Source: Minisyncoccota bacterium
GTDB taxonomy: Bacteria > Patescibacteriota > Minisyncoccia > Phycocordibacterales > UBA5272
Reading direction: 5' to 3'
Assembly: GCA_046350775.1 (NCBI GenBank)
Contig: JAXLZS010000001.1
Span: forward strand, 22,353-86,352
Length of the DNA: 64,000 bases
Both the position numbers and the translations under genes were made by a program. The notes beneath the pieces are model-generated. The model was not told the origin of the DNA. It saw nothing but the letters and a program-made list of their open reading frames with translations, and searched no databases. Positions within the stretch are counted from its first letter, which is position 1. Every line of letters starts with the position of its first letter. Below, piece by piece: positions 4,881-63,800 of this stretch.

Positions 4881-5411
4881 ATGAAATTCTTACTCTTTCC
4901 ACTTGGAAATCATGGCCAAAAATACGAAAATAGCAGACATAATGCTGGACGATATGTCTTGCGAGAGCTCGAGAAAAATAATCTACTAGAAGAATTTAAA
5001 AATCTGGAGATATTTATTCCGCATTGCTATATGAATGAGTCTGGAGAATATCTCAAAGATTTTTTAAAAAATAAAAACTTACAAAAAGAAAATATTATAG
5101 TCATGTATGATGATAAAGATCTGGAAATAGGTGAGGTGAGATTGGCTAGAGATAGAGGAGATGGTGGACACAACGGATTAAAAAATATAATAGAAAATCT
5201 ATGCACGAAAGATTTTTACAGAATAAGAATAGGTATAGCCCCAGAAGGGACCGGCAAAAATGATCTTGTGCCACCACATGGAGATATAGTCAGAGAATAT
5301 GTCTTGCAAAATATGAGCGAAGAGGAAAAGAAAATATTGTCTTCTAAAGAAATCTTAGAAAAAGTCTCAAATTTTATTTTTAAGATAATTAGAGATAGTG
5401 AAAATCAATAA
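4881..5411 (+). CDS. pth: Peptidyl-tRNA hydrolase
   Basis: PLGNHGQKYENSRHNAG, matching the Pth signature GLGNPG..Y..TRHN.G. Confidence 0.85.
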   Translation: MKFLLFPLGNHGQKYENSRHNAGRYVLRELEKNNLLEEFKNLEIFIPHCYMNESGEYLKDFLKNKNLQKENIIVMYDDKDLEIGEVRLARDRGDGGHNGLKNIIENLCTKDFYRIRIGIAPEGTGKNDLVPPHGDIVREYVLQNMSEEEKKILSSKEILEKVSNFIFKIIRDSENQ

Positions 5412-8172: not shown

Positions 8173-9267
8173 TTATTCTTCTGGATTTTCATCGTCCTTT
8201 GACTCATCGTGTGACGGTGCAAAATCAAGACCGCCACTTTCAAGATTTTTTCTGATTTCTTTTTCGATTTCTTTTGAAATTTTTGGATTTTCTTTTAAGA
8301 AAGTACGCGATGCGTCATATCCACGACCAAGTTTCACTTCACCATAATTATAGCTGGTACCAGACTTTTCTATTATCTTAAATTTTTCTCCGAGTGCGAG
8401 TAGCTCTCCAGCATGACTGATACCTTCACCATACATGATATCGAATTCAGTAGACTTGAATGGTGCAGCGACTTTATTTTTGACAACTTTTACCTTGGTG
8501 CGAGCTCCTAGCACATCGTCTCCTTTTTTAATTTGAGCAGTCTTTCTAATATCAAGTCTGACAGATGAATAAAATTTCAAAGCTTTTCCTCCTGGTGTAG
8601 TCTCAGGATTGCCAAACATGACACCAATTTGCATTCTGATCTGATTAATGAAAATTATTACAGTCTTTGATTTGTGAGCGATAGCTGTGAGCTTTCGGAG
8701 AGCTTGTGACATGAGGCGAGCTTGTCTTCCGACATGAGCTTGAGACATGTCTCCTTCTATTTCTGCTTGAGGAGTCAGTGCCGCCACAGAGTCGATGACT
8801 AGCACATCTATTTTTCCAGAGCGGACAAGGGTCTCAGCGATGTCGAGGGCTTGCTCGCCATTGTCTGGTTGAGATATGAGAAGCTCATTAATTTTGATAC
8901 CAAGCTTTTTTGCATATTCTGGATCCATGGCGTGCTCAGCATCAATAAAGGCACAAGTGCCTCCCATCTTTTGAGCTTCAGCGATGACATGAAGAGTCAA
9001 AGTTGTCTTTCCGGAAGACTCTGGACCAAAGATTTCGATGATTCTTCCTCTTGGTAGTCCGCCAACTCCGAGTGCGAAGTCTAGACCGATTGATCCTGTA
9101 GATACAGCACCAATGTCTACTTTTGGAGTTTCTCCCAATTTCATGATAGCTCCTTCGCCAAATTTATTTTGTATTTCTTTTAATAGCTCGTCAGAATTTA
9201 CTTTCTTTCCTTCCTCTTTTACTCCTACTACTTTTTTTGCTTTCACTACTTTCTTTTTTAGTGCCAT
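8173..9267 (-). CDS. recA: Recombinase RecA
   Basis: Walker [14 protein letters not shown] and the RecA signature [13 protein letters not shown]; lysine-rich N-terminal extension. Confidence 0.95.
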
Positions 9268-9320
9268 ATTTTTAAATAATTTTATTAATTTTTTTAATTT
9301 CTAAATTATAGCATAGGAAA

Positions 9321-9674
9321 TTACTCCTTTCCCACTTCCATAATCTGCTCTTTTGTTTTGCCGTATTTGTCTACAGCCTCTATAACTATCAAAGTGTAGG
9401 GTGATTTAGCTACTATTTCTTCTTTAAAATTTCCTTTTTCGTCGATAGTTATATCTTTTCCATTAATAGATATATTTTTTACATTTTTGACATTTCCGTC
9501 TACATAAAATGTCTCAGCTTGCACGATTTCACCCTTGGTAGGTGAATATATTTTTATTATAGGTCCGTATAAATAATTAAAAATCCTGGATATAAAATAA
9601 ATTAAAATGATAGAGGCTATAGCTATAAATATCCAAGTTTTTGACTTTTCTAAAAACGATTCTTTGACTGACAT
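9321..9674 (-). CDS. Hypothetical small membrane-anchored protein
   Basis: Single N-terminal TM helix, then a roughly 80-aa beta-rich domain; no family recognised. Confidence 0.45.
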   Translation of the reverse strand: MSVKESFLEKSKTWIFIAIASIILIYFISRIFNYLYGPIIKIYSPTKGEIVQAETFYVDGNVKNVKNISINGKDITIDEKGNFKEEIVAKSPYTLIVIEAVDKYGKTKEQIMEVGKE

Positions 9675-9694
9675 GTTTATTTTTTTGTCCAGAT

Positions 9695-12220
9695 TTATTC
9701 TGGTTTATTATTTTGCTCCATTTCTGAGAGTTCTTGTTCTAATTTTTCTACTTCACTTTTAGTTTCTTTACCAAAAAGTACTTCGCGGTGGCGACCACTT
9801 GTAGCTGGACCGATGATGCCATACATCTCAAGATCATTTATGATGCGAGCAGATTTATTGTATCCCCAGCGGAAAGCTGTCTGGAGGGCACTGGTAGAAG
9901 CTTTTCCTGTAGATATGACATAATCACGAGCCGACATATAGTCTTCATCATCAGTTGGCTCCTCAGTACTACTTCTACCTCCACCGTCTTGCATCTCTTT
10001 GTAGCCACTTGTAGGTGAAGATGATATTTTGATCTTATCAATATTTATATTGTCAGGGATAAAGTCGTTATACTTTCTTTTGACATCATTTATGACGCCC
10101 ACTATCTCTTCGCTTGAGACAAAAGGAGCTTGTACACGAGTGATGGTAGATCCATTCATGTATAACATGTCTCCATTTCCCAATAAATCTTCTGCTCCAG
10201 CTTGATCAAGAATTGTGCGTGAGTCAATCTGCGAGGTGGTCTTGAGGGCGATACGTGAAGGTATGTTGGCTTTGATGGTACCAGTGATAACTTTTACGTC
10301 AGGGCGTTGAGTAGTCAGGATAAGATGTATACCGGCAGCACGAGCTTTTTGAGTGAGAGAGGTGATGACAGGAGTGATTTCTTTTGGATAGGTGAGCATG
10401 AAGTCATTAAACTCATCAAAGACTATGATGATAAATGGCATCTTTGGAGGTAAGTCTCTCACTATATCCCCTTCTTTATATTTCTTTTTTGCTTTCTCAA
10501 GTGCTGGGCCAAATATTTTTTTATTATAATCGGTGATATTTGGTACACCATATTCACCAAGGACGTCGTAGCGACGGTCCATTTCTTGAGCTGCCCAATT
10601 AAGGGACTTGATGGCGGTCTTTGCATCCTTGATAATAGGAGTGTATAGATGTGGTAATGAATTGTAAGCGGTGAATTCCACTCTCTTTGGGTCAAGAATA
10701 ATCAATTTGAGATCATATGGTGAATTTTTATAAAGCAAAGAAAGGATAAGATTGTGCAGAGTGACAGATTTTCCTGTACCTGTAGCTCCAGCTACCAAAA
10801 GATGTGGCATCTTGGATAGATCTGATATGACAGGTCTTCCAATAATATTTTTACCGATTGCAAGAGAGAGACTTGGTCCATCTTTAAACTCTGGCAATTC
10901 TAGTAGACTTCGGAGGCCGAGCATGGATTTCTTTTCATTTGGTATCTCAATACCAACGAAGGGCTTTCCTGGGATAGGTGCCTCTATGTGCATATTTGTA
11001 GCCGAGAGAGCCATTTGCAGATTGTCTTTCAATCCTAAAATCTTTTTAACATTTACTCCTTGGGCCGGCTTTAGAGTAAATTGTGTGACAGATGGCCCAA
11101 CTGTGACCTCTCCCATTTCTACTGGTATAGCAAATTGGTCTAGTACTTTTTGTATGACATTCATTTTAAATTTAGAATCACCAGCCGAAGACTTTCCAGA
11201 GTCACTATTTAATATATTGATATCAGGAGAGATAAATTCTCCATCAAGTATTATTGGTTTGCTTTCCTCTTTTATACTTTTCTGTCTCTCTTCTTCTGGT
11301 TTAGATTTCGCTTTTTCTAGCTCACTTTCTTCTATCTTTTCTGTGTCTGCGGTCGAGACGTTTAATATTTTTCTATTTAGATTTTCTTCAGCTTCTAGAT
11401 TTTCATTTTTTATGAGAGTACCCATCAGCTCTCTGTGAAGATTACTCTCAGGTAGATCTACATCTTTATTTATATTTTCTGGTATTGGCAGAATAACTTT
11501 TTCTTTCTTCTTAAATAAAGAGGCAGCAGCTCTCGATATCTTTAGAGATACCCACTTAATGAATAGGAAAATATTTTTAAAAATAATTTTTAAGATTCTC
11601 CAGCTTTCTGAGAAAATATTTCTTGATATTTTTTTAGGCTCTTCTGTTTTTTCAAAAGCGAGCTCACCAGACTCTCTTGTGATATTTTTTGTTGTTTCTT
11701 CTTTTAGAGACATAAATTTTGGTCTGTCTTCGTACAAGAATATAAACGCGATAAATCCTATAGCTAGAGATACTATAGAAGGCAATACATTACCAAAATT
11801 TTTTTTCAAAAATTCAAAGAGATATTCTCCGACCGCTCCACCAGCTGGGATGTGAAGAGAAGAAGAGAGTGTGGTCGCTGAAAAGACAAGTAAGAGAGAA
11901 GACAATACAGAGATGAGGGTAAAGCTTTTTTTCTTGTCGGTCCAAAGATAGTAGCCAAACAAAAAGAAAATTGTAAACAATAAATAAGAGCTCCAACCAA
12001 AGACTATATAGATGAGATGGAAAATATAGTTGCCGACTGCTCCGCCAGACTTTAAAGATGAGACTATTAAAAATGTGCCAATTAGAAATAGAATCACAGA
12101 GATCATACTATCGCGCATCGCGTTTTTCTTTTCATTTTTATGGACTATGACAGGCGAGTCTTTTTTATCTGACTGACTTTTGTATTTATTTTCGTATTTG
12201 TTTTCTTTGTATCTTGCCAT
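9695..12220 (-). CDS. ftsK: DNA translocase FtsK
   Basis: N-terminal multi-TM region, long linker, C-terminal motor with Walker A GATGTGKS, Walker B IIVFDEF, and a gamma wHTH (SARDYVISTGKASTSALQTAFRWGYNKSARIINDLEMYGIIG). Confidence 0.9.
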   Translation of the reverse strand: MARYKENKYENKYKSQSDKKDSPVIVHKNEKKNAMRDSMISVILFLIGTFLIVSSLKSGGAVGNYIFHLIYIVFGWSSYLLFTIFFLFGYYLWTDKKKSFTLISVLSSLLLVFSATTLSSSLHIPAGGAVGEYLFEFLKKNFGNVLPSIVSLAIGFIAFIFLYEDRPKFMSLKEETTKNITRESGELAFEKTEEPKKISRNIFSESWRILKIIFKNIFLFIKWVSLKISRAAASLFKKKEKVILPIPENINKDVDLPESNLHRELMGTLIKNENLEAEENLNRKILNVSTADTEKIEESELEKAKSKPEEERQKSIKEESKPIILDGEFISPDINILNSDSGKSSAGDSKFKMNVIQKVLDQFAIPVEMGEVTVGPSVTQFTLKPAQGVNVKKILGLKDNLQMALSATNMHIEAPIPGKPFVGIEIPNEKKSMLGLRSLLELPEFKDGPSLSLAIGKNIIGRPVISDLSKMPHLLVAGATGTGKSVTLHNLILSLLYKNSPYDLKLIILDPKRVEFTAYNSLPHLYTPIIKDAKTAIKSLNWAAQEMDRRYDVLGEYGVPNITDYNKKIFGPALEKAKKKYKEGDIVRDLPPKMPFIIIVFDEFNDFMLTYPKEITPVITSLTQKARAAGIHLILTTQRPDVKVITGTIKANIPSRIALKTTSQIDSRTILDQAGAEDLLGNGDMLYMNGSTITRVQAPFVSSEEIVGVINDVKRKYNDFIPDNINIDKIKISSSPTSGYKEMQDGGGRSSTEEPTDDEDYMSARDYVISTGKASTSALQTAFRWGYNKSARIINDLEMYGIIGPATSGRHREVLFGKETKSEVEKLEQELSEMEQNNKPE

Positions 12221-12337
12221 AAATTAATAATTAATAATATCCTAGTAATATGATCACTCTCGATGAGGCTATTATAGCACGCAGCGTCTGTGGAAAACTT
12301 TTTAGAATAAATGAAAAGGAGAATAAGTAGAAAAGAT

Positions 12338-12502
12338 TATAAAGGACAATATCTAAAGGACATATTAAAAATAAGCAAATATAATAAAAGACATATTAAA
12401 ATCATTTGTCTTTTTAATATCAAAAAGAGTTTTTTATAAAGGACGTATACATTTCTATTTGAGTATAAGAAATTTAAAATTTATATATATAAAAGACATT
12501 TT
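12338..12502. repeat. Array of iteron-like WTAAARGACAWWT motifs upstream of (and reused inside) the 12607..13533 gene
   Basis: Direct copies at 12338-12350 (tataaaggacaat), 12355-12370, 12386-12401, 12436-12448 and 12488-12502; inverted copy tgtctttttaa at 12407-12417. A further copy spans the start codon (12607-12626), and three copies lie at 13241-13285 inside the gene, including the identical 13-mer tataaaggacaat at 13254-13266. Confidence 0.45.
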
Positions 12503-12606
12503 AAAAAATAATAAATTTCAATCTTGTCTAGTTCTTGCTATTTTTTAAAAAAAGTTATAGTATCAAGCTAAAAGTGAGAAGGGAAAAAATAATTTAAAAA
12601 ATTACT

Positions 12607-13533
12607 ATGGATAAAAGACAGGTAAATGATAAAGAAAATTATAATCTACTCATAGCAAAAAAGACAGAAAAAATTGTCACCGCTATTTATCTCATCTCTC
12701 AATTTCTCTCTCGCGAAGAAAATCTAAAACACGATCTCAGAAAGTCCGCCAATGATCTTTTAAAAAATATCAACAGTATCGCCTACACTGATCTCAATCA
12801 AGATGATACAAAAAATCTTTTTGTCATTTATAAACTCTGTCTTGATAATGTCTCACTCATCATCTCATATCTATTTGTAGCTCGCGATGCAAATCTCATT
12901 TCCAGAATGAATGCTGACATAGTGATAGAGGGGCTACGTGTACTAGAAAATATTTTAATCAAAAAACAATTTAATTTCTCTAGGGAAAGTATTTTAATTA
13001 CAGAAGAAGTTTCTCTTTTAAATTTTAATAATTTTGAGTCAGATAAAAATAATCTAAATACATCTTTTGATGTGCTGACAGAGAGAAATGTCGTGATAAA
13101 TGAAAAGATTGAAAAAAATAAAAATAATAGTTTTGAAAAAATAAAAGAAATAGAAAATCTAAAAGAAGAGAATGAGAAAGAAATATTTTCTCCTGAAATT
13201 AAAATCTTAGAAAACAACCCAAAATCAAAAGCGGATTTTTATAAAGGACAAAATATAAAGGACAATACTTATAAAAGACAAAGTATTCAAAATAAGGAGG
13301 AAAATAAAGTCGGAAAAGAAAAATCTCTAAAGACTATCAATAGAAAGAATAATAGAAAAGAGCAAATTATATCTTTATTTACAAAAGGTGTAGAAGTTTC
13401 TATAAATGATATAGCTAAAAAGGTAGTCGGTTGCTCAACTAAAACTCTCCAAAGAGAGCTAAATAATCTGGTCCAAGAAAAGAAAATTCAAAGAATTGGT
13501 GATAAAAGATGGAGTAAATATACTTTGGTCTAG
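12607..13533 (+). CDS. Hypothetical Lys/Asn/Glu-rich protein with C-terminal winged-helix DNA-binding domain
   Basis: The C-terminal 55 aa (ISLFTKGVEVSINDIAKKVVGCSTKTLQRELNNLVQEKKIQRIGDKRWSKYTLV) look like a DeoR/MarR-like wHTH; the central region is low-complexity KEN-rich; the N-terminal 130 aa are unassigned. Confidence 0.55.
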   Translation: MDKRQVNDKENYNLLIAKKTEKIVTAIYLISQFLSREENLKHDLRKSANDLLKNINSIAYTDLNQDDTKNLFVIYKLCLDNVSLIISYLFVARDANLISRMNADIVIEGLRVLENILIKKQFNFSRESILITEEVSLLNFNNFESDKNNLNTSFDVLTERNVVINEKIEKNKNNSFEKIKEIENLKEENEKEIFSPEIKILENNPKSKADFYKGQNIKDNTYKRQSIQNKEENKVGKEKSLKTINRKNNRKEQIISLFTKGVEVSINDIAKKVVGCSTKTLQRELNNLVQEKKIQRIGDKRWSKYTLV

Positions 13534-13980
13534 ATTATAAGCTGAATATATAGTCTTTTATACTGAATTAACATAAGAATAGAAATGTTAAGAAATGTTA
13601 ATTTTAATTTGCATATTTTTGAAATAGTCTTTTGTTTATGGTATATTTGTGATAGACGACCTGTTTCTCTGGTGAGGGCGTCCTCTGGTATTTGAGATAC
13701 AATTATAAGTAATTATAGGTATCACAAAAGATCGGATTGATCGTTGGCAATAGAATATAGGCACAGATTAGAAAAAAATTATTAAATTATTAGTAGTTAA
13801 TGTTAACCCTAATAAGTGTTTATCTTCAATCGTACTTTTTTATTTTTACGAAGTGAAAAAGTTAAAACATCGATTGATCTCATCAAAAGTAAATAAAATA
13901 TTTGACTTGTCGAAGTCATACAAGAATATTTTATCTACTCGATCTCTATAAGATCAAATTATAAATTTAGTAAAATTTTT

Positions 13981-16900
13981 ATGAATTTAAAATTAAAGAA
14001 AGTAGCTATCGCTACTATCTCAGCAGGATTCGTAGCAGGTGCTGTTATGGCATCAGCTCAATCTGCATCAACATGCTTCCAATTCACACAGAATATGAAG
14101 CTTGGTAGTTCAGGAGCGCAAGTTCTACAACTACAAAAGACCCTCAATGCAGCTGGTTATACTATTTCTACATCAGGAGTAGGATCAGCAGGCATGGAAA
14201 CAACTTACTTTGGTGCTAAAACCAAAGCAGCTGTCATCAAGTATCAAGCAGCAAACAATATCATTCAAACTGGTAATGTTTTTGCTTTAACTAGAGCAGC
14301 TTTAAACGCAAACTGTACAGCTACTACTCCTACAACACCTGGAAATACAACAACTTCAGGTGCAGTATCAGTAGCTTTAGCTTCTGTACAACCTAATAAT
14401 GTATTAGTAGCAGGTTCAGTAAATGCAGCACTAGCTAACCTTTCATTCAACGGAAATGGTACAGTTTCTAGTGTTAAATTACAAAGACTTGGAGTATCAA
14501 ATAGTGATACATTAACAAATGTATATCTATACGATACAGCTTCAGGAGCTAGATTAACTGATGGTGCTTCAGTCCTAACAGACGGAACAGTATCATTTAA
14601 TAATGGATATGGTCTATTCACAGTTTCTGGATCAAAAGGAATCACTGTAAGAGCTGACATTGCTACATCAAGTAATGGATACTCAACATCAGGACAATCA
14701 GTCGGATTTGCTTTAGTTGGTTATACAACTGTAGGAAACCCAGCAGCTGTTGTATCTGGAGTTAATGGTCCTGCTCTTCCTATCGGATCTGCATCTGTCG
14801 TTTCTGCAAACATCACTGCAACATCATCTGTTGCTTCACAAGTTGATGCTGGAAGACAGAATGTAGTATTCTGGTCAGGAACAGTAAATACAACAAAAGA
14901 TTCTTACATGTCAGGCGCTCTATTCTCATTCACAGGCTCAGCTCCTTACTCAGTATTTGCTAATGTAAAGCTATACGTAGATGGAGTACAAGTTGGTAAT
15001 GCAGGAATGATCGACGCAAACGGCAAATTATCATTTGCTGGTTCTAATTTCATTAAGGCTGGAAATCATGACATCTCACTACGTGGTGATGTTGTAGGTG
15101 GAGCTGGAAGAAATTACTATGTAAGACTTGAAAACTCAGGACTAAGTTTTGAGGATGCAAACATTAGAGGTGTATACGGTGCTATAACAACATTTGGAGT
15201 TAATTTCTCTACAAGTCTTGTACAAACAGGTACTGTAACAATCAACTCATGTTCTTCAACAAACTGTGCTGTCTTCACTTCTGATTCATCTTTCAGTGGT
15301 GTTAAGGTAGTATCTGGTGCTACACAACAAACTATCGGTAAATTCACTCTTAAAGCTATTGGTGAAACTCTAAAGCTTGACAGTGGAAACTTGAAAGTTA
15401 CTGGTGCTACAAACACTGGTGATATCAGAAATGTATCTGTATGGGTAGATGGAGTACAAGTTGTATCAGGAAAAACTGCTTCTTTAGCAGGATCTGATGT
15501 TTCAATTTCAAACTTCAGTGGTGCTATGGTTCAAATGGGTGCAACAGCAAACATTGAAATCAAAGCAGATATTTCATCATCAACAGGTATCGCTCTTGGA
15601 TCAAATACTTTAACAGCTGGATTAAACTTCACAGCTATTGGACAAGATTCAAGAAACTCAACTCCATTCTCTTATGTAACAAGTAATTCAGTATCAGTTG
15701 GAACTTTGAATGCTTCATTTGTAAACAATTCAAACTTCACTGGTTCAAAGATTTCTGGAACACAAAACAATGTTAAAGTTGGTTCTTACACACTATCAAC
15801 AGGAAATGAAGGTGTAACTCTAAATACAATTGCAGTTACATTGACTCCTGGAGGTTCTGCTGATATGTCAAGATTCAGTAACTTTAGATTGATGGATGGT
15901 TCTACACAACTATACAGCCAATCTAATCTTGGATCTGGTACTTCAGCTCAAGTTGTAACAGCTTCTGTTTATGTACAAATCCCAGCTAATACTACAAAAA
16001 CATATGATGTCTTTGTAGATGCTAATAATGCATCAGCAGGAAATACCCTTACTTCATCATCAACAGCTTCTTACCAAGGAGCTATCAGCCTAACAACAGC
16101 TACTCCTTCAGCAGGTTCAGCAGTTACTACAACTGTTGCAGCTTCTGGATTAGCAAGTATTGTTAAGGGCGCTAATGCTTTAACAGCTAGATATGTAACA
16201 GGTGGATCTGTAAACAATGCTGGTCTATTTACACTAGTAGCAACAGGAACAACATTGAATGTTACAAAGATTCAAGCTGTAGTATCAAATGCATCAGCTG
16301 TTTCTGGAATGACAATCGCTGGTGTTACTGCACAACCTAAGAATAATGGAGTATACTCAGTTGATGTTAATCTTCCAGTTACAACTATTGGTACAGACGT
16401 TCCAGTATCAGTAACATTTAACACAGCTAATAGAGATACAAACTCATTATCTGGAGCTACAACAACAGTATCATTGTCATACATCTATGGTACTGCTGGA
16501 GCAACAACAGTTATTGTTGGTACAGAGGACGCTACATCTACTGCTTCTACAACAGCTTTAGGTGCAGCAACTTCATCAACATTTACACTTGTTGGAGCTT
16601 TACCTACAGTTAAGCTAACTTCTGTTGATAGATCTTACACTCAATCAACAGCTACAAGTACTTACAACAATATCAAGATTGGATCTGTAACAATTACTCC
16701 TTCAGCAGGAGGAACAGTTGCTGTATCACAAATCCCAGTATCATTTACTTCATCAATAGTAACTTCAGCTAGATTAGTACATGCAGGAGATGCTGATACA
16801 TCAAATCCAGTATCATCAAATGCATTATCAACTAGTGGAAACTTTGCTTTGACTTCAGGAAACATCAGTTCACCTGTAACTTATGATATCTTGGCAACTA

Positions 16901-17052
16901 TTGTTGTACCAGCAAATACAAACAGTACAACTGTTTCTAACTCAACATCTTTAGGATCTTCTTCAAACTTCCTATGGGATGATGTGACAGGAAGTGTTGC
17001 AGTAGACAACTACACAGCAGCTCTTCTAGTTGGTGGATATACAAGTAACTAA
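13981..17052 (+). CDS. Large surface (S-layer-like) protein with N-terminal peptidoglycan-binding domain
   Basis: Signal peptide (MNLKLKKVAIATISAGFVAGAVMASA). Residues about 30-110 match the PG_binding_1 pattern (GSSGAQVLQLQKTLNAAGY...TYFGAKTKAAVIKYQAANNI). The remaining roughly 900 aa are Thr/Ser/Gly/Val/Asn-rich, beta-rich and nearly charge-free. GC and codon usage are visibly higher than in neighbouring genes, with a long AT-rich 5' leader; this fits a very highly expressed gene. Confidence 0.65.
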   Translation: MNLKLKKVAIATISAGFVAGAVMASAQSASTCFQFTQNMKLGSSGAQVLQLQKTLNAAGYTISTSGVGSAGMETTYFGAKTKAAVIKYQAANNIIQTGNVFALTRAALNANCTATTPTTPGNTTTSGAVSVALASVQPNNVLVAGSVNAALANLSFNGNGTVSSVKLQRLGVSNSDTLTNVYLYDTASGARLTDGASVLTDGTVSFNNGYGLFTVSGSKGITVRADIATSSNGYSTSGQSVGFALVGYTTVGNPAAVVSGVNGPALPIGSASVVSANITATSSVASQVDAGRQNVVFWSGTVNTTKDSYMSGALFSFTGSAPYSVFANVKLYVDGVQVGNAGMIDANGKLSFAGSNFIKAGNHDISLRGDVVGGAGRNYYVRLENSGLSFEDANIRGVYGAITTFGVNFSTSLVQTGTVTINSCSSTNCAVFTSDSSFSGVKVVSGATQQTIGKFTLKAIGETLKLDSGNLKVTGATNTGDIRNVSVWVDGVQVVSGKTASLAGSDVSISNFSGAMVQMGATANIEIKADISSSTGIALGSNTLTAGLNFTAIGQDSRNSTPFSYVTSNSVSVGTLNASFVNNSNFTGSKISGTQNNVKVGSYTLSTGNEGVTLNTIAVTLTPGGSADMSRFSNFRLMDGSTQLYSQSNLGSGTSAQVVTASVYVQIPANTTKTYDVFVDANNASAGNTLTSSSTASYQGAISLTTATPSAGSAVTTTVAASGLASIVKGANALTARYVTGGSVNNAGLFTLVATGTTLNVTKIQAVVSNASAVSGMTIAGVTAQPKNNGVYSVDVNLPVTTIGTDVPVSVTFNTANRDTNSLSGATTTVSLSYIYGTAGATTVIVGTEDATSTASTTALGAATSSTFTLVGALPTVKLTSVDRSYTQSTATSTYNNIKIGSVTITPSAGGTVAVSQIPVSFTSSIVTSARLVHAGDADTSNPVSSNALSTSGNFALTSGNISSPVTYDILATIVVPANTNSTTVSNSTSLGSSSNFLWDDVTGSVAVDNYTAALLVGGYTSN

Positions 17053-18334: not shown

Positions 18335-21614
<3,280 letters not shown>

Positions 21615-21895
21615 ATTGATTTTTATTTCAGATTTTTATTTTATTGTTCACATCCTGTTTACTTCTGAATTCTAGAAATTATTTTTTTGAGTTAGTTTTT
21701 AATTAATTTATTAACTTAATTTTTAGAATTCAGGAGTGAACTACACCACGGTCTGACTTAAGATTATTGTTTGGGAGTTGGAGATATATTTCTTTCAAAT
21801 CTATATCTGCAACTCACTGAAGAGTGAAGTATTAATAATTCTTTTGTCAGCCGTGACCTAATTATGTTATGCAGGATTCTAACTCAAAATATTGT

Positions 21896-21971
21896 GGTGA
21901 GATAGCTCAGTTGGTTAGAGCATCAGTATTGCATACTGAGGGTCACTGGTTCGAGCCCAGTTCTCTCCGCA
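21896..21971 (+). tRNA. tRNA-Ala (anticodon UGC)
   Basis: Cloverleaf: acceptor ggtgaga/tctctcc, D-arm gctc-agttggtta-gagc, anticodon arm tcagt-attgcat-actga (UGC at 34-36, U33, A37), T-arm actgg-ttcgagc-ccagt. Position 3:70 is U:U rather than the canonical Ala G3:U70; no CCA encoded. Confidence 0.8.
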
Positions 21972-21986
21972 ATATATTTTGAGTAT

Positions 21987-22101
21987 TCTGTTCTCCCGAT
22001 TCAGATGAAGGGTAACACACCATCTCATTTCGAACTGGATCGTGAAGACTTCACTCAGCGATGGTAGCTTTCGAGCAAGAGTAGTTTTTCGGGAGAACAG
22101 A
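21987..22101 (+). rRNA. rrf: 5S ribosomal RNA
   Basis: Helix I: tctgttctcccga pairs with tcgggagaacaga. Conserved loop C/E segments ccatctcatttcgaactggatcgtgaagacttcactcagcgatggtag and agagtag. Length about 115 nt. Confidence 0.85.
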
Positions 22102-57194: not shown

Positions 57195-57662
57195 ATGGGA
57201 TTTGAAAGAGGTGGTAACAGGGGTGGAAATGGTAGAGGTGGATTTGGTGGTAGTCGTGGAGGAGGAAGATCTGGGGGCTTTAGTGGTGGTAGAGGTGGTG
57301 ACAGAGGTGGAAGTAGAGGAGGTTTTAGGGAGAAACCTGCTATGCACAAAGCTGTCTGTGATCAATGTGGTAAAGATTGTGAAGTGCCTTTTAGACCTTC
57401 AAATGATAAACCAATTTTTTGTGATGCATGCTTTGGTGGTAAAAGAGAAGGAAGTAGAAATGAATCAAGATCCTCATCTAGATCATCAGCTCCATTAGCA
57501 GATTTTAGTAAACAATTTTTAGAGATAAACGATAAATTAAATAAATTAATTTCTCTCTTAGAAAAGTCATCAGTTGTAGAAGTGAAAAATGAAGAAGAAA
57601 AAGAAATTAAAAAAGTAGCAAAAAAATCAGTCGCTAAAAAATCAATTTCAAAAAAGAAATAA
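57195..57662 (+). CDS. RGG/Gly-Arg-rich protein with CxxC-x17-CxxC zinc ribbon and Lys-rich tail
   Basis: N-terminal 50 aa of RGG/GGR repeats; CDQC-(17 aa)-CDAC with exact x17 spacing; C-terminal KKVAKKSVAKKSISKKK tail. Confidence 0.65.
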   Translation: MGFERGGNRGGNGRGGFGGSRGGGRSGGFSGGRGGDRGGSRGGFREKPAMHKAVCDQCGKDCEVPFRPSNDKPIFCDACFGGKREGSRNESRSSSRSSAPLADFSKQFLEINDKLNKLISLLEKSSVVEVKNEEEKEIKKVAKKSVAKKSISKKK

Positions 57663-57897
57663 TTTTTTTCAAAAAATAAAAATAAAAAATAGATATCAAG
57701 TTGTGGTATCTATTTTTTATTTTTAGAATATTTTTATAAATTATTTTTTTCATTTTTTATTTTTTCTTATAAAAAATTATTTTAAAATTAAAAAGAAATT
57801 AAAAATTTTATTAGGGCTTTTTTGTTAATATTTTTATCCCCAGTTTTATCTTAAAAAGCAATTTTTTGTCATTATTTTTTGGTATAATATTTATATT

Positions 57898-60800
57898 ATG
57901 TGGTCGAGATTTTTCCAAAAAATTAAAATAGTTTTCATTTTTATTTTCTTTTTTGCTGTCTTTGTTTTTAAAGCTTCAGCTGATGAAATAGTTGTGGTAC
58001 AAACTACGGATTTTCCTGTTGAGCAGTCAGCTGTCTTGGCAGATGCTCCAGTAGAAAATTTATCTACAATAAATTCTACAGAAGTCACAAGTGATGCCGT
58101 GACCCCTGATACTACTACTTCATCAGCATCATCAGACACTTCTTCTTCAACTCAAGTTACAGAAAATAATTCTTCTACTACTATAGAAAATATTATAGAA
58201 AATATTTCAAACGAAAATTCTTCATCAACTGTAGAAAATATTTTTTCTACAAACAGCACGAGTAGCACAACCACAAATGAAAATATTTCTTCATCAACTT
58301 TAGAAAATAATTTTACAGAAAATATTTTAAATGAAATTTCTTCTAGCACCACTCTCGAAACTCCATCTTCTTCGATAGAAAATAATTTTTCTTCTACTAC
58401 AGAAATAGATCTCACACCAAAGGTGGTCGAAGAATTTACAGAGGTAGGAAAACTCGTCACTATATCTGCGACCGATGAGCAAGAAGCGATCAAGCCGATG
58501 ATAGACATACCAGTCTCGACTTCTATTCCAGAAATTTTTAAAGTTGGTCAAGAAGACAAAATAAAAATTAAATGGAAAAATAATTTAAATCAAGAAATGC
58601 AATTTACCACTTCTGATGAAGATGGAAATGGATACATAGATCACATCAGTTGGATAGTGCCACATCTCTCAACTCAGACTTTTGAGATTATTTTTATTTC
58701 AAACGCTTTACGCTTGGATTCTGACAAAAACATCATCGAAGATATTTTCAGCTCAGTCGGAGAGTGGGATAAAAATTTTGCTAGCATTTTGAATGGTCAA
58801 TATGTGAGAGTGACTTTTGAGCATTTGCTAGACAGTACTAGAGACATCACAATCTTTGCTAGACCAACAGATAATAGTTCTCCCGCATCAATAGAAGTCT
58901 ATACAAAAGATGGTACATATGTAGGAACTATATCTAATATAGATCATGACGGAAAATATACTCTAGTCCTAAATAATCTTGCTACATCTACAGATGTTTT
59001 TGATTTAAAAATCATTGGCAATGTAGATATCGACTATATTACAGATCCTGATGCGTATTGGGTAGGAGGTACAGGCAACTGGTCTGATCCAAGTCACTGG
59101 GCCTCTTCATCTGGTGGTGTGGGTGGTAGCTTTGGAGGTATACCTAATGCTACAACAAGAGTCTATTTTGATTCTTCTTCTGGAGCTTCTACTACCATTG
59201 TAACAATTGATACATCAGCTACAGTAGGATTTTTTAGCCTTTCTGGGTATTTGGGAACAATTGTTCAAGATGCGGATTTAGATATAACAGATTCTGGAGG
59301 ACAGCCTGGCGGATTTATTATAAGTCAAGGAGGAACATTTACATCAACAAATCCTTTGGTTAATAATTTTTCTGTTACAGGATCTTTTGTTATATCTATT
59401 AACAGTGGAATATTTCGTCGCTACACTGGACTTGGGACAACCAATGATCCGTATTTGATTTATGATGTCTATGGTTTACAAGGGATGTTTACAGGACTTT
59501 CTAATTCTTATAAATTAAATAATGATATTGAGGCGACAAGTACTCGCCTATGGGATACCATTTTTTATGGATATGGATTTAGACCCGTAGGAAATAATAC
59601 GACTCCATTTTCAGGAGTTTTTGATGGAGCAGGACATTCTATAAACAATCTTTACATCAATGCTTTTTCTAATGGTATAGCAGTAACAAGCTATATTGGA
59701 CTTTTTGGATATTCTACTAATCTTATAAAAGATGTAACACTTAATAATTTATCAATTACAGCAACAAGTTCATCTGGATCAAATGGTTCTTCTTATGGTG
59801 ATGGGGTTGATGGTATATCTACTTCTAATGGAATAGCTGGGTTTGCGGGAAATGCTGGCTCTGTCTTATATTTGGGTGGTCTAGTAGGTTATAATACGGG
59901 TAATATTAGTAATGTAAATATCAGTGGAAGTGTATCAGGTACCGCAGGAAGTGGAGGTAGTGGATCAAGAGGTGGAAATGGAGGAAATATCACAAGTGGG
60001 AGTAATACAGCTGGATCTGGTGCATCTGCTCCTACAAATGCAGTAGCTGTAGGAGGTGTAGCATATGTCGGAGGTCTGGTAGGATATTCTCAGCAAGGTA
60101 TCATAAATTCAGCTTCAAGCTCTTTGACGGTCACTGGACAGGGTGGAGCTGGTGGAAATGGAGGCGCTGGTGGAAATGGTGGAAATGGGTCTGTGGCCGG
60201 AGTTGGAACTGGAGCTGGCGGTGCTGGTGGAGCTGGTGGAATAGGTGCTGCAGGTAATGTGGCCTATGTCGGAGGATTGGTGGGAATGATAAATACTGGC
60301 GTCATATCACAGTCAAACTCTACCGGCAATGTGACAGCGATAGGTGGAGCTGGGGGAAATGCTGGTACGGCAGGTACTGGTGGTAACGCCGGAGTAGGAG
60401 CTGGAGGGTCTGCTATTGGAGGTATTGGTGGTGCTGGTGCCGCTGGAGGTGCTGGAGGAATAGCATATGGAGGAGGACTGGTCGGATACAATTCTGGTAC
60501 TATCCAGAATGGAAGCTATGCCACAGGAATAGTCCAAGTAACTGGTGGTACTCCTGGTAATAGTTCATCTGGAGCTGCTGGTGGAGCATCTGCTGCTGGA
60601 TCTGTGACTACAGCTGCATCAGGAGCTACAGCTGTTGGTGGTGCTGGCGCTGCCGGAGGTGCAGCTTATGCTGGAGGATTGGTCGGATTAAATTATATAT
60701 CTGGAATAATTGACGGAGCTGTATCTTCTGTGTATGCCTCAAGTACTGTGACAGCGACTGGATCTAATGGTAAAAATGCTGGATTTGGTGGAACTGGAGG

Positions 60801-63800
60801 TAGTGCTGCACTTACAACTTCTGGAACTGGAGGAGTCGGTGGAGCAGGAGGAACAGGAGGTGCGGGAGGACTTGCTTATGTAGGAGGATTGGTAGGATAT
60901 AATTATGGTACTATAGGATCTTCGTATTCAAAGACTGGACTTGTAAGTATAGTCGGTGGATCAGGAGGAGTAGGTGGTACTGGTGGATCAGGTGGAGCAA
61001 AAGGATCGGCTGGTACTTCTGGTGCTGGCGGAGCGTCGGGTGCAGGAGGAACTGCTGCTGTCGGTGCTGGTATTATTTATGCTGGAGGATTAGTTGGAAT
61101 AAATGAAGGGATTATTCAAAATACGTATTCCACAAATCCTGTTTATGGAGTCGCTGGTACTGGTGGAGCCGGCGGTGCAGGAGTCGCGGCACAAACTGGT
61201 CTTGCTGGATTGGCGGGAGGTGTCGGCGGAGCTGGAGGAATTTTAAATATTGGAGGTATAACTGGTAGAAATAATCTATCAGTGGTTGGCAGTTATCACG
61301 CGACAGGGACAATTATCGGATTTTCTGGTGCTGGTGGAGCCGGCGGTATCGGTGGAGCTGGTGGAGCTTGGACTGGTGGAATTGCTGGAGTGTCAGGTAC
61401 TTCTACTGCTGGTGGATATATTATTGCTGGTGGAGTAATAGGTATTAATTATGGTAACTCTGTTTTAAATAACTACTCTATTTCAGATATTACAGCTACC
61501 GGTGGCGCTGGTGTTGCTGGAGCTAATGGTAGAGATGGATATACTTTTACTACAGGTGTCGCTGGTGTGGCTGGTAGTGCTGGTGCTATTGGTGGTATAG
61601 CATATACAGGAGGTGTGGTGGGTTATAATAATAACGGAGAAATTTCTAATTCATATTCTATTGGAAATATTACAGCAAATGGCGGATCTGGAGGAAATGG
61701 AGGGAATGGAGGAAATGGAGGTGCTGGCACATCGAGTACTGGGGGAGCTGGAGGCGCTGGTGCTGCTGGAGGTACTGGAGGCGCCGTTTTTGCTGGTGGA
61801 GTAGCTGGACAGATTATTTTAGGAACAGTAACGTCAAGCTATAATATTGGAAATGTAATTGGTACTGGAGGATCAGGAGGTACTGCTGGAAATGGAGGAA
61901 ATGGTGGAGTCGGTGGTACGAATTTTGCTGGTGGAGTAGGAGCAATAGCTGGAGCCGGTGGATCTGGAGGCGCTGCAAAAGTTGGAGGTATATCTGGACA
62001 GAGCGCCGGAGTAATACAAGAAAATTCTTATTCAATTGGAGATATTACTGCTACAGGAGGTACAGCTAGAGTTGGTGGAATCGGTGGAAATGGTGGCGCT
62101 TCTTCTGGAACATTTGTCGGTGCTGGAGCAGTTGGTGGTGCTGGTGGTGCAGGAGGAGCTGGTGCATTAGCATATGCCGCAGGTATTGTTGGTGACAACA
62201 GTAATACTATTATAAATACATACGCAAGTGGAAATATTATAGCTACAGGATCCTCTGGAGGAAATGGTGGGGCTGCTGGATCAGGAGGAAGTAATGCTAC
62301 AGGTGGATCATCGAGTACTGGAGCAGCGGGTGTTGCTGGTGGTGCTGGCGGAGCCAGTGCAGCTGCTTATGCTGGTGGTATTGCTACTTCAAATAACGGT
62401 GCTACAATTGCAAATTCTTATATAGAGTCAGGATCTGTCATGGCTATAGGAGGAAATGGTGGAAATGGTGCAACTGGAGGGGCTGGAGGGGTGGCTGGTA
62501 CAGGAGCTCTTGGAGCTGTAGGAGGTACTGGTGGAGCTGGTGGAACAGGATCTTTTGGTTTGGCTGGTGGTATAGTTGGTCAAAATCTTGGTGGTACTGT
62601 CGATAATTCTCATGCGACTATAAATGTAAGCTCTATTTCTGGTCGTGGAGGAAATGGTGGTACTGGTGGTACTGGTGGAGCGGGTGCAAATGGAGGAGTT
62701 GGCGGAGCTAGCTCTGGAGTTGGAGCTGTAGGATATGTTGGAGGTGCTGTAGCATATAATGTTGGTATTTTAAACAACATTTATGCTTCAGGAAATGCTT
62801 CCACTACTGGAGGAATTCCGGGATCTAATGGTAGTGGAGGAAATGGTGGATCAAGTAGTATATCAGCCGGAGGAGCCGGAGGAGCCTCTGGTGCTATAGC
62901 CGGATCTGGAGGTAATGCTTATGCTGGAGGACTTGTAGGTCTAAATTTTACCAACGGAGTAATTCAAGGAGCTTCTCATGCGAGTGGAAATTCGATAGCT
63001 GTAGGTGGAGCTGGCGCGGCTGGAGCAAATGGTGCCTCAGGTGGAAATTCTACTGGGGCTTTTGCTGGAGGCGCTGCTGTTGCTGGTACTGCTGGAACGG
63101 CTGGTGGATTTTCTGGCTCTGGAGGACTTGTGGGATATAATTCTTGGTCAGTTTCTTCTGATTCTTATGCTGAAGGCTCTGTATTTTCAATTGGTGGTGC
63201 CGGAGGAGCTGGTGGAAATGGAGGAAATGGAGGGTCTAGTGGTGCTGGAGTAGCAGGTACCGCAGGTGCTGCTGCTGCTGGTGGTGGTACCGGCGGTGTG
63301 TCTTATGCAGGTGGAGTCATTGGTTCCAACACTGTTTTGGCTGGCACAATTAATATTGCAAATAGTACGGGAACAATATATTCAAAAGGAGGAGCTGGTG
63401 GCGCCGGAGGAGCTGGTGGAAATGGCGGAAATGGCGGTAGTTCAACCGGCGCTATTGGTGGCGCAGGAGGCCTTGGCGGGACTGGTGGTACTGGAGGAGC
63501 AGGGTATGGCGGTGGAATAGCTGGCTCAAATGCTGGAGTGATAAGAAATGTTACTTATACAATTACTAGTATTACTGTAGGTGGAGGTGAAGCTGGAGTA
63601 GGTGGCTCAGGAGGTAATGCTGGAGCTTCAGGTAATATATCTGGTGGTGCTGGTGCAACTGCTGGCGCTGGTGGCGCTGGTGGTGCTGGTGGTGCTACAT
63701 ATATAGGAGGTCTCGTAGGAGATAATTCTGGATTAATAAATACATCAATCGTTTATGGAAATTTAGCAAGTAACAATATTGATGGTGGTGCTGGCGGAGT

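Follow-up and report, generated by a model that had tools for sequence, protein, structure and literature searches.

To our knowledge, gene regulation is almost unexplored by experiment in the candidate phyla radiation, which represents a large fraction of bacterial diversity. Here we describe a predicted regulator gene and its repeated sequence motif in a window of 64,000 nucleotides from a Minisyncoccota bacterium (contig JAXLZS010000001.1, positions 22,353 to 86,352 of the forward strand; all positions below are counted from the first letter of this stretch). The gene, at 12607..13533, codes for a protein of 308 amino acids, and copies of the word (W)TAAARGACA lie upstream of it, over its start codon and inside its coding sequence (CDS). 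A first-pass annotation, made by reading the sequence alone, had already described a repeat in these three places, and all the copies that it listed are present. The gene, the parts of the protein that it encodes and the copies of the motif are as follows.

12607..13533, + strand: predicted regulator gene, a 308-aa open reading frame (ORF) encoding a four-helix bundle, a disordered linker and a winged helix
12628..12969, + strand: codons of the N-terminal four-helix bundle (aa 8-121), with a predicted local distance difference test score (pLDDT) of about 90-97
12979..13326, + strand: codons of the disordered K/E/N-rich linker (aa 125-240, about 115 residues), pLDDT below 50, with most of the intragenic copies
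13327..13530, + strand: codons of the C-terminal winged helix-turn-helix (aa 241-308), helix-helix-helix-hairpin
12340..12498, + strand: upstream array, five direct copies and one inverted copy between two divergent promoter-like elements
12340 and 12354, + strand: direct copies TAAAGGACA
12385 and 12490, + strand: direct copies TAAAAGACA
12437, + strand: direct copy TAAAGGACG, whose last base differs (G)
12407-12416: inverted copy, reverse complement TAAAAAGACA, with one A extra
12612..12620, + strand: start-codon copy ATGGATAAAAGACAGG (ATGGATAAAAGACAG), overlapping codons 2-5
12658-12666: further copy AAAAAGACA, codons KKT, not in the first-pass annotation
13242..13280, + strand: three intragenic copies, at 13242, 13256 and 13272
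13552..13560, - strand: inverted near-copy TAAAAGACT directly past the stop codon, also not in the first-pass annotation

The repeat is real, but the 13-nucleotide consensus originally given for it, WTAAARGACAWWT, is too strict and has only two exact sites; the conserved core is 9-10 nucleotides long, (W)TAAARGACA, and its flanks are just A/T-rich. The region 12330-13290, with a G+C content of 25%, contains nine matches to the core TAAARGAC[AG] in 961 bp, compared with 0.07 on average, and at most 2, in 5000 shuffles that preserve the composition. TAAARGACA is found 11 times in the whole window, where 2.67 matches are expected, and eight of the 11 fall inside this region; the remaining three are at the level of chance (about 2.6 expected there). 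The exact 13-mer TATAAAGGACAAT is present at 12338 and again at 13254. The three copies in the CDS are not a peptide repeat, because copies 1 and 3 are read as YKGQ and YKRQ and copy 2, in a different frame, as IKD.

Comparisons between loci were made on 80 loci carrying homologs of the gene, fetched one per species, 78 of which had a usable gene model. From 400 bp before the start to the stop codon of these 78 genes, TAAARGAC occurs at 4.15 copies per kb, against 0.047 per kb in 530 kb of flanking DNA, an enrichment of about 88-fold. When the core is relaxed to AARGACA/ARGGACA, no locus has fewer than one upstream and two intragenic copies, the medians being 3 and 6, and the arrays comprise 5-17 sites with a median of 9 per locus. 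Other clades also have one copy within about 25 nt of the ATG, and copies just past the stop codon are found at several other loci too. When 7-mers enriched in the intergenic regions or in the CDS over the flanks were sought de novo, all the top words were sub-words of the motif, the reverse-complement word TGTCCTT was 23-fold enriched in the CDS, and the sole other enriched set in the intergenic regions was the promoter-like block GGCATAGAAT. Shuffles, enrichment at 78 loci and de novo words thus agree that the repeats are tied to the gene and are not a product of base composition, as the first reading had supposed.

The sites are irregularly spaced, 8-60 bp apart, with weak peaks at 11, 13-17, 24 and 35 bp. 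Neighbouring pairs are mostly direct (198 of 275), with 44 convergent and 28 divergent pairs, and perfect palindromic pairs such as TGTCCTTTATAAAGGACA occur. Over the 78 loci, 339 copies of TAAARGAC lie on the strand of the gene and 59 on the other. The reverse-strand copies are nonetheless enriched about 10-20-fold both in intergenic regions and in the CDS (19 intergenic copies versus 3.6 expected for both strands), and this enrichment, together with the palindromic pairs, favours double-stranded DNA as the probable target.

Selection at the nucleotide level can be read from the codons. Intragenic copies are written in both frames that are free of stop codons, 153 of them as x-K-D and 61 as K-G/R-Q/H. 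As a control for codon choice we took identical tripeptides in the genes that neighbour the family gene at these loci. The tripeptide [IV]KD is encoded as xTA-AAR-GAC in 141 of 188 cases (75%) in the family gene and in 8 of 56 (14%) in the neighbours (Fisher p = 2e-16, a value that overstates independence, the loci being one per species but phylogenetically related; the effect size is large). The frequency of GAC as its Asp codon is 85% in the family gene and 27% in the neighbours. K[GR][QH] takes the motif-creating form xxT-AAA-GGA/AGA in 55 of its 76 occurrences in the family gene, and in 1 of 12 in the neighbours. The copies recur at set positions of the alignment, namely in the linker, where the winged helix begins ('S[IV]KDI') and, for some clades, at a site in the bundle; some relaxed copies coincide with KKTEK and CSxKT codons. 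In protein alignment A1 the linker is unconserved except for FYKGQ/IKD, the residues that the motif encodes. The codon signature and the use of both frames therefore indicate that the motif in the CDS is kept by selection on the DNA itself.

The winged helix-turn-helix that had been proposed for the C-terminus is borne out by an AlphaFold2 model of the protein built with 35 homologs. Searches of Pfam and NCBIfam with the 308-aa protein gave no family above cut-off; the best Pfam match was HTH_DeoR (PF08220) at aa 250-297, sub-threshold with 15.4 bits against a cut-off of 21, and the NCBIfam DeoR/GlpR matches scored 12.7-19.8 bits against cut-offs of at least 300. Sequence and profile searches of PDB returned only generic sub-threshold helix-turn-helix matches, and armadillo-repeat matches of the N-terminal part, which were judged spurious. 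A place in the DeoR family was rejected, given the position of the helix-turn-helix, its score and the absence of a sugar-phosphate isomerase-like effector-binding domain at the C-terminus. As far as its sequence tells, the protein belongs to no described family. The best fold matches of the N-terminal bundle are proteins of the Avd / S23-IVS type (PDB 4dwl, 8ub7, 2rld, 2gsc), and Avd forms pentamers. The invariant polar residues of the bundle, K19, E21, R45, S99 and N102, might sense a signal.

The intergenic region was examined in an alignment (A4) of five loci that encode proteins with 54-77% identity to that of the window. Here the motif copies are conserved and the spacers between them have diverged, and two further blocks stand out, of which the one on the ftsK side includes the DnaA-box-like sequence:

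12535..12563, + strand: promoter-like element of the regulator gene, TTGCTA, 17 nt, TAGTAT, an invariant block of the alignment by our own reading
12271..12297, - strand: promoter-like element of ftsK, a conserved block with an extended -10, TGcTATAAT, at 12271-12279
12289-12297: DnaA-box-like TGTGGAAAA (TGTGGAWAWC), conserved in the alignment and found in a scan for DnaA boxes

In the clade of the window the array is placed between the two divergent promoter-like elements, and the five upstream copies are 5' of the conserved -35. A second clade (25 loci) has a conserved promoter-like GTCTTTACA, 17-18 nt, TAGAAT, that ends 115-169 nt before the ATG, with an inverted motif core over the -35 and a mean of 2.5 copies between the -10 and the ATG, which is the geometry of a classical repressor. 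A generic scan for promoters and terminators gave no more sites than shuffled sequences and did not list the 12535-12563 element, and it was not used as evidence.

The family is very widely distributed. The 158 homologs found through a word index are all full-length, and all those with a named source come from Patescibacteria (Nomurabacteria, Pacebacteria, 'Patescibacteria group'). A profile search of a library of 1.84 billion proteins gave 4770 clusters at 50% identity, with E <= 1e-30 for 1835 of these, and the best 150 clusters listed were all 224-343 residues long; in a scan of one genome per species the family was present in at least 517 species. The two neighbours of the gene in the window are:

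8173..12220, - strand: divergent operon of ftsK, a 117-aa gene and recA (Pfam), a candidate co-regulated neighbour
13981..17052, + strand: gene for a secreted surface protein with a PG_binding_1 domain (Pfam, signal peptide, S/T/G-rich), the most persistent neighbour

By tblastn, ftsK is upstream on the opposite strand in 76 of the 80 loci and recA is detected in 67; the counts are 68 for the 117-aa Glucodextran_B-like gene and 59 for the 1023-aa surface protein with PG_binding_1 on the downstream side, and most of the neighbours that went undetected belong to loci cut by a contig end. Wherever gene orientation could be evaluated (63 loci), the genes upstream are on the opposite strand to the regulator gene and those downstream on the same strand, and in 10-kb flanks synteny extends to ybeY, hisS, lepB, pth and S1. 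In one divergent clade, that of protein P0093, ftsK is not the upstream neighbour and the PG-binding gene is still downstream. Judged by this conserved synteny, the gene is a core, vertically inherited, chromosomal gene, which contradicts both a mobile-element reading and the earlier description of its surroundings as non-core: the block of recA-ftsK, the gene and the PG-binding gene is deeply conserved, and DUF3800 alone is variable. Conserved divergent gene pairs reportedly predict relations between regulator and target.

Several other features of these surroundings were observed. The 117-aa protein (9321-9674, - strand, between ftsK and recA) has an N-terminal hydrophobic segment besides its Glucodextran_B-like domain. 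The spacer before the PG-binding gene, 13619-13980 (core 13653-13773), has 81% column identity among loci whose regulators are 54-77% identical to that of the window, its DNA being far more conserved than the flanking genes. The core of about 110 nt (AGACG..GCGTCCTCTGGTATTTGAGATAC..GTATC..GATCGTTGRCAAYAGAATA..GCAGATTA), noted in the window and at loci L001-L032, L081-L084 and L209, follows just after a promoter-like TTGAAA, 17 nt, TGnTATATT, occurs once per locus in 36 loci and has a folding z of -3.3. This conserved element is probably the leader of the surface-protein gene or a small RNA belonging to it; no compensatory changes were found in it, the sequences being too conserved, and an Rfam scan of 12200-14000 and 57600-64000 gave nothing relevant. 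At 13570-13612, past the stop codon of the regulator gene and upstream of the promoter-like site of this leader, there is a second small conserved element: a direct repeat CTTAACAnTCTTAACA is found in four of five aligned loci (alignment A5, columns about 58-75), and the fifth, the window, has an inverted TTAACAT..ATGTTAA there instead. Further downstream, a 23S rRNA gene within 18348-22098 measures 3256 nt against a model of 2925 nt, which implies about 330 nt of insertions. The DUF3800 gene is just upstream of it, and it is followed by tRNA-Ala(tgc) and then 5S, with no 16S in the window, an unlinked and unusual order. A giant ORF from 58498 to 64000, which continues past the window end, has more than 1800 codons in view, S/T/N-rich and then with Gly-rich (GGAGGxGG) repeats; it accounts for a local G+C content of 49% and a GC skew of +0.41 and probably encodes a huge surface protein.

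The link between the protein and the motif was sought in their joint variation. The recognition helix, CSxKT[LIV]QRE[LI], is close to invariant in the family alignment and so is the motif, which would be compatible with direct recognition but tells nothing about it. Three proteins (P0092, P0093 and P0122) have KTV[AS]REL in place of KT[LIV]QREL, and the motif could be read in two fetched loci of this group. The P0093 locus has the word CTATAAGACA: among eight upstream copies five have the TATAAGACA form and three retain AAAAGACA, and there are three variant copies in the CDS, two of which yield the peptide SIRHSDSIRQMS. The P0122 contig carries next to no upstream sequence, and at this locus CTATAAGACA occurs twice in the linker. 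Upstream and intragenic copies therefore change together. The helix could be located in 230 family proteins, and the 227 with a Q helix have a mean of about 3 peptides of the IKD/KGQ type and about 0.1 of the IRH/YKT type, a relation that is reversed in the three proteins with an A/S helix. This covariation of helix and motif probably represents one evolutionary event, and we take it as supportive evidence only. From such comparisons we infer that the 308-aa protein is the binder of the motif.

The motif is confined to this locus within the window, but the suggestion that it might be so confined altogether did not hold, since similar arrays occur at the gene for the CCA-adding enzyme, cca, in related bacteria. 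A metagenome scan for three TAAARGACA words in short gaps gave at least 120 loci. Among the listed loci, 16 carry the family gene, at least one other, L117, represents this locus with the gene lost at a contig end, and 53 are constant-period tandem repeats (periods of 9-39 bp) that contain the word and were set aside on spacing alone. Such repeats (L087, L102, L113, L127, L140 and about 48 others, on unrelated contigs) dominate naive searches for multiple copies of the motif. Among the irregular arrays cca is the second gene that stands out. At five loci (L104, L110, L114, L164 and L177) three sense copies in cca encode SKGQ..YKGQEDIKDK (in L110, KGH for the first KGQ); L103 retains the third copy, read in the alternative frame (LKGH, not IKDK), and in L162 the copies read HKGQ, SKGH and IKDI. 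Four more cca loci, picked by protein similarity alone, have 2-4 AAGGACA-type copies each in the same 80-bp stretch, 12 in total against about 0.25 expected from the background of these loci. The copies in cca at L103, L104, L110, L114, L162, L164, L177, L194 and L205-L208 number 2-4 per gene, on the sense strand, and lie between the codons for RRDFT[IM]NA and those for [IL]RxVG, and the divergent spacer yraN(UPF0102)-tRNA-tRNA-cca also holds copies of the motif. An upstream array combined with one embedded in codons is thus also found at a second gene of this group of bacteria. These observations suggest a small regulon that includes cca and yraN, and the cca arrays may share a common binder.

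DnaA-box-like sequences also recur beside the motif, in fusions such as TGTGGATAAAGGACA, and the start codon of the window's gene reads TATGGATAAAAGACA. Runs of the type GTCYTTTATCAACACTnTnCACAnAGTTATCCACAG are found upstream of yraN (L205, and L207 at about 5200-5300), and L100, L132, L192 and L199 are further loci with a DnaA-box-like sequence beside the motif.

With moderate confidence, we propose that the 308-aa protein is a multivalent autoregulator, restricted to Patescibacteria, with intragenic operators at (W)TAAARGACA. The marks of such a regulator, a DNA-binding domain and a conserved repeated site at its own gene, are both found here, as the predicted winged helix and as arrays at 78 of 78 genes. 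Among the options offered by the first-pass annotation, an autoregulated repressor is the one that best fits the comparative data, and it stays putative. According to this proposal, the C-terminal winged helix would read the asymmetric 9-10-bp word in duplex DNA and the four-helix bundle would oligomerise the protein, while the long linker would let several tethered heads fill irregularly spaced sites at once and cooperatively. The sites would be those in the promoter region, the 5' leader, the start codon, the protein's own CDS and the DNA just past the stop codon. Occupancy over the -35, the leader, the start codon and the intragenic cluster about 650 bp downstream would repress the gene and hold the level of the protein steady, by promoter occlusion, by a roadblock and/or by loops that join the upstream cluster to the intragenic one. 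The divergent ftsK-recA operon could be coupled to the same control by way of the intergenic region that it shares with the gene, and elsewhere the same protein may act on cca and yraN. That the protein oligomerises, that it represses its gene and that it governs a regulon are thus our deductions from these comparisons.

A number of points weigh against this proposal. The bias to the sense strand is equally expected of a signal in RNA, and the position of the sites with respect to the promoter differs by clade, upstream of the -35 in one and in the leader in another, the promoters themselves being assigned by consensus readings of conserved blocks. It is the resemblance of fold that suggests oligomerisation, and sequence and profile searches did not establish homology of the bundle to Avd. 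The arrays at cca and yraN are on contigs without the family gene, where a different binder could act, and the protein is linked to the motif by co-location and one covariation event at the level of a clade. A bolder version of the proposal, which we hold only tentatively, is a 'gene-body operator' system, where an oligomeric four-helix-bundle hub, with winged-helix heads on tethers of about 115 residues, would coat, loop or roadblock the bodies of a few genes in place of acting at a classical promoter operator, or mark chromosomal landmarks linked to the functions of ftsK and recA; the 9-bp word would then be written in two frames into the regulator's own gene, into cca and around yraN.

The question of who binds the motif, and in which molecule, has other possible answers. 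It is unlikely, though somewhat less so than the readings that follow, that another factor, for instance a more global regulator of Patescibacteria, binds it, with the gene, cca and yraN as mere targets and the 308-aa protein reading some other sequence. The arrays of the same motif on contigs without the family gene would suit such a factor, as would the DnaA-box-like sequences and TrmB-like helix-turn-helix genes that recur near the cca/yraN arrays, and the tie between protein and motif is a matter of comparing sequences. The cca contigs are short (9-14 kb fetched), however, so that absence of the gene there says nothing of the genome, and a global factor would leave open why all 78 family genes sit in arrays far denser than any flank and why the motif variant changes with the recognition helix in the P0093/P0122 clade. 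We consider it improbable that the word acts in RNA, either as UAAARGACA bound in the leader or body of the mRNA in an autoregulation of translation or stability, or as a signal for pausing or processing. The five upstream copies of the window's clade precede the conserved -35 and so would not be transcribed from that promoter, one inverted core overlaps a -35 in the second clade, and antisense enrichment and palindromic pairs are features of duplex DNA. As for an artefact without function in an AT-rich, Lys/Asp-rich gene, the low G+C content of the region, the K/E/N-rich linker and the relaxed matches within conserved peptides are what it would predict, but it would yield neither the excess over shuffles nor that over flanks in 78 species, and it is at odds with the codon choice controlled by the same tripeptides in neighbouring genes and with non-coding copies that are conserved where their spacers diverge. 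This explanation is effectively refuted, and its probability is negligible.

The other rival places the array in chromosome maintenance, as an unconventional iteron origin or as a centromere-like nucleation site for segregation tied to ftsK, and we judge it as improbable as the RNA reading. Genes do diverge from the intergenic region, which contains a conserved DnaA-box-like sequence, the sites stretch over about 1.3 kb and take in the gene body, which is also possible for parS and its like, and ftsK is adjacent in nearly all loci. Total GC skew also changes sign nearby, being negative from 1 to 10 kb and positive from 18 to 64 kb, with genes leftward on the left of the locus and mostly rightward on the right. 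A test for an origin by skew had been proposed in the first-pass annotation, and it revealed no strand switch at third codon positions: the means of coding-strand GC skew at these positions (GC3) are -0.105 for 8 '-' genes on the left, -0.062 for 4 '-' genes on the right and +0.095 for 30 '+' genes on the right, a test of limited power with only 9 genes in the left arm. AT skew at third positions (AT3) follows the same pattern, and the + strand is G-rich at silent sites on both sides; the sign change of the total skew is therefore due to purine-rich coding strands and not to a replication switch. GC skew of the +/-3-kb flanks in 63 loci had means near 0 and was uninformative. DnaA boxes are few, two with one mismatch in the window's intergenic region and 17 versus 8 expected in 73 intergenic regions, and dnaA and dnaN were not found in the window. 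A replication origin at 12.2-12.6 kb was rejected on the lack of a GC3/AT3 switch, of a DnaA-box cluster and of dnaA. A landmark is also hard to reconcile with an asymmetric, irregularly spaced motif, with arrays of the same kind at second and third loci (cca and yraN) and with the locus of the P0093 clade, where ftsK is absent.

Two further options of the first-pass annotation had to be abandoned. A plasmid or phage Rep-iteron module is contradicted by the protein, which has no Rep match in Pfam, NCBIfam or PDB sequences and is modelled as one winged helix with a four-helix bundle, by the sites, whose 9-10-bp core, 8-60-bp spacing and DnaA boxes at just twice the level of chance do not make an iteron array, and by the location, which is chromosomal, syntenic in 76 of 80 loci and near rRNA and ribosomal protein genes instead of on a mobile element. 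A partition or centromere module fares no better: the protein lacks the N-terminal domain of ParB (ParB/Srx, CTPase), a scan of ORFs of the window turned up neither ParA nor ParB, and the asymmetric motif is no palindromic 16-bp parS.

If the proposed autoregulation holds, these proteins would be a putative family of uncharacterised and very widespread regulators of Patescibacteria, with operators written into coding sequences on an unusual scale. The comparison predicts a concrete pair of regulator and site, with the regulator's own gene as the strong target and cca, yraN and the ftsK-recA operon as candidates. It also provides an unusually clean natural case of a protein-coding sequence constrained by an overlapping putative DNA-binding code, in which the same word is written in two frames of a disordered linker and the codon signature holds across hundreds of species, which should be useful for studies of dual-coding constraint and for the annotation of Patescibacteria genomes. 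Searches of a literature library on origins in the candidate phyla radiation, on SOS/LexA motifs of Patescibacteria and on the motif words gave nothing relevant, the matches to the motif words being primers.

Among known systems, the E. coli repressors DeoR, LacI (operator O2) and GalR (operator OI) are the closest in design, having several separated operators, some of them in coding sequences, and looping through oligomers. The protein described here shares with them a weakly DeoR-like helix-turn-helix, sites spread over about 1 kb that includes the CDS and a module that might bridge them by oligomerisation. It differs from DeoR in that its helix-turn-helix is C-terminal and below the Pfam cut-off and in having no C-terminal sensor domain of the DeoR kind, and from all three in its asymmetric 9-mers, mostly direct and with a median of nine per locus, and in having its intragenic sites within the gene of the regulator itself, with conservation over an entire bacterial class. 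PurR of E. coli offers a parallel for a site inside the regulator's own gene: two palindromic operators lie downstream of the purR transcription start, one of them in the CDS, and serve negative autoregulation in a protein with a large and defined regulon. The putative operators described here number 5-17, are asymmetric and occupy two frames of a disordered linker.

Rep-iteron modules (RepA, pi, TrfA) also have direct repeats beside and overlapping the start of a winged-helix gene, and autoregulation through the repeats is typical of Rep genes. Their iterons are of 17-22 bp, whereas here the core has 9-10 bp and irregular spacing, with no WH1-WH2 homology, no DNA unwinding element or DnaA-box cluster, and a chromosomal, syntenic and vertically inherited locus. 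In ParB-parS, RefZ with its binding motifs (RBM) and Noc with its binding sites (NBS), as here, motifs inside genes are conserved at the nucleotide level, and parS sites are often within parB itself. Those systems differ in possessing a ParB or TetR-type domain, a palindromic motif, a ParA partner and sites over an origin-proximal domain, in place of clusters at one to a few genes. Finally, the bundle resembles in its fold the family of bAvd, the accessory protein of diversity-generating retroelements, and of the S23-IVS proteins (PF22296 / PF05635).

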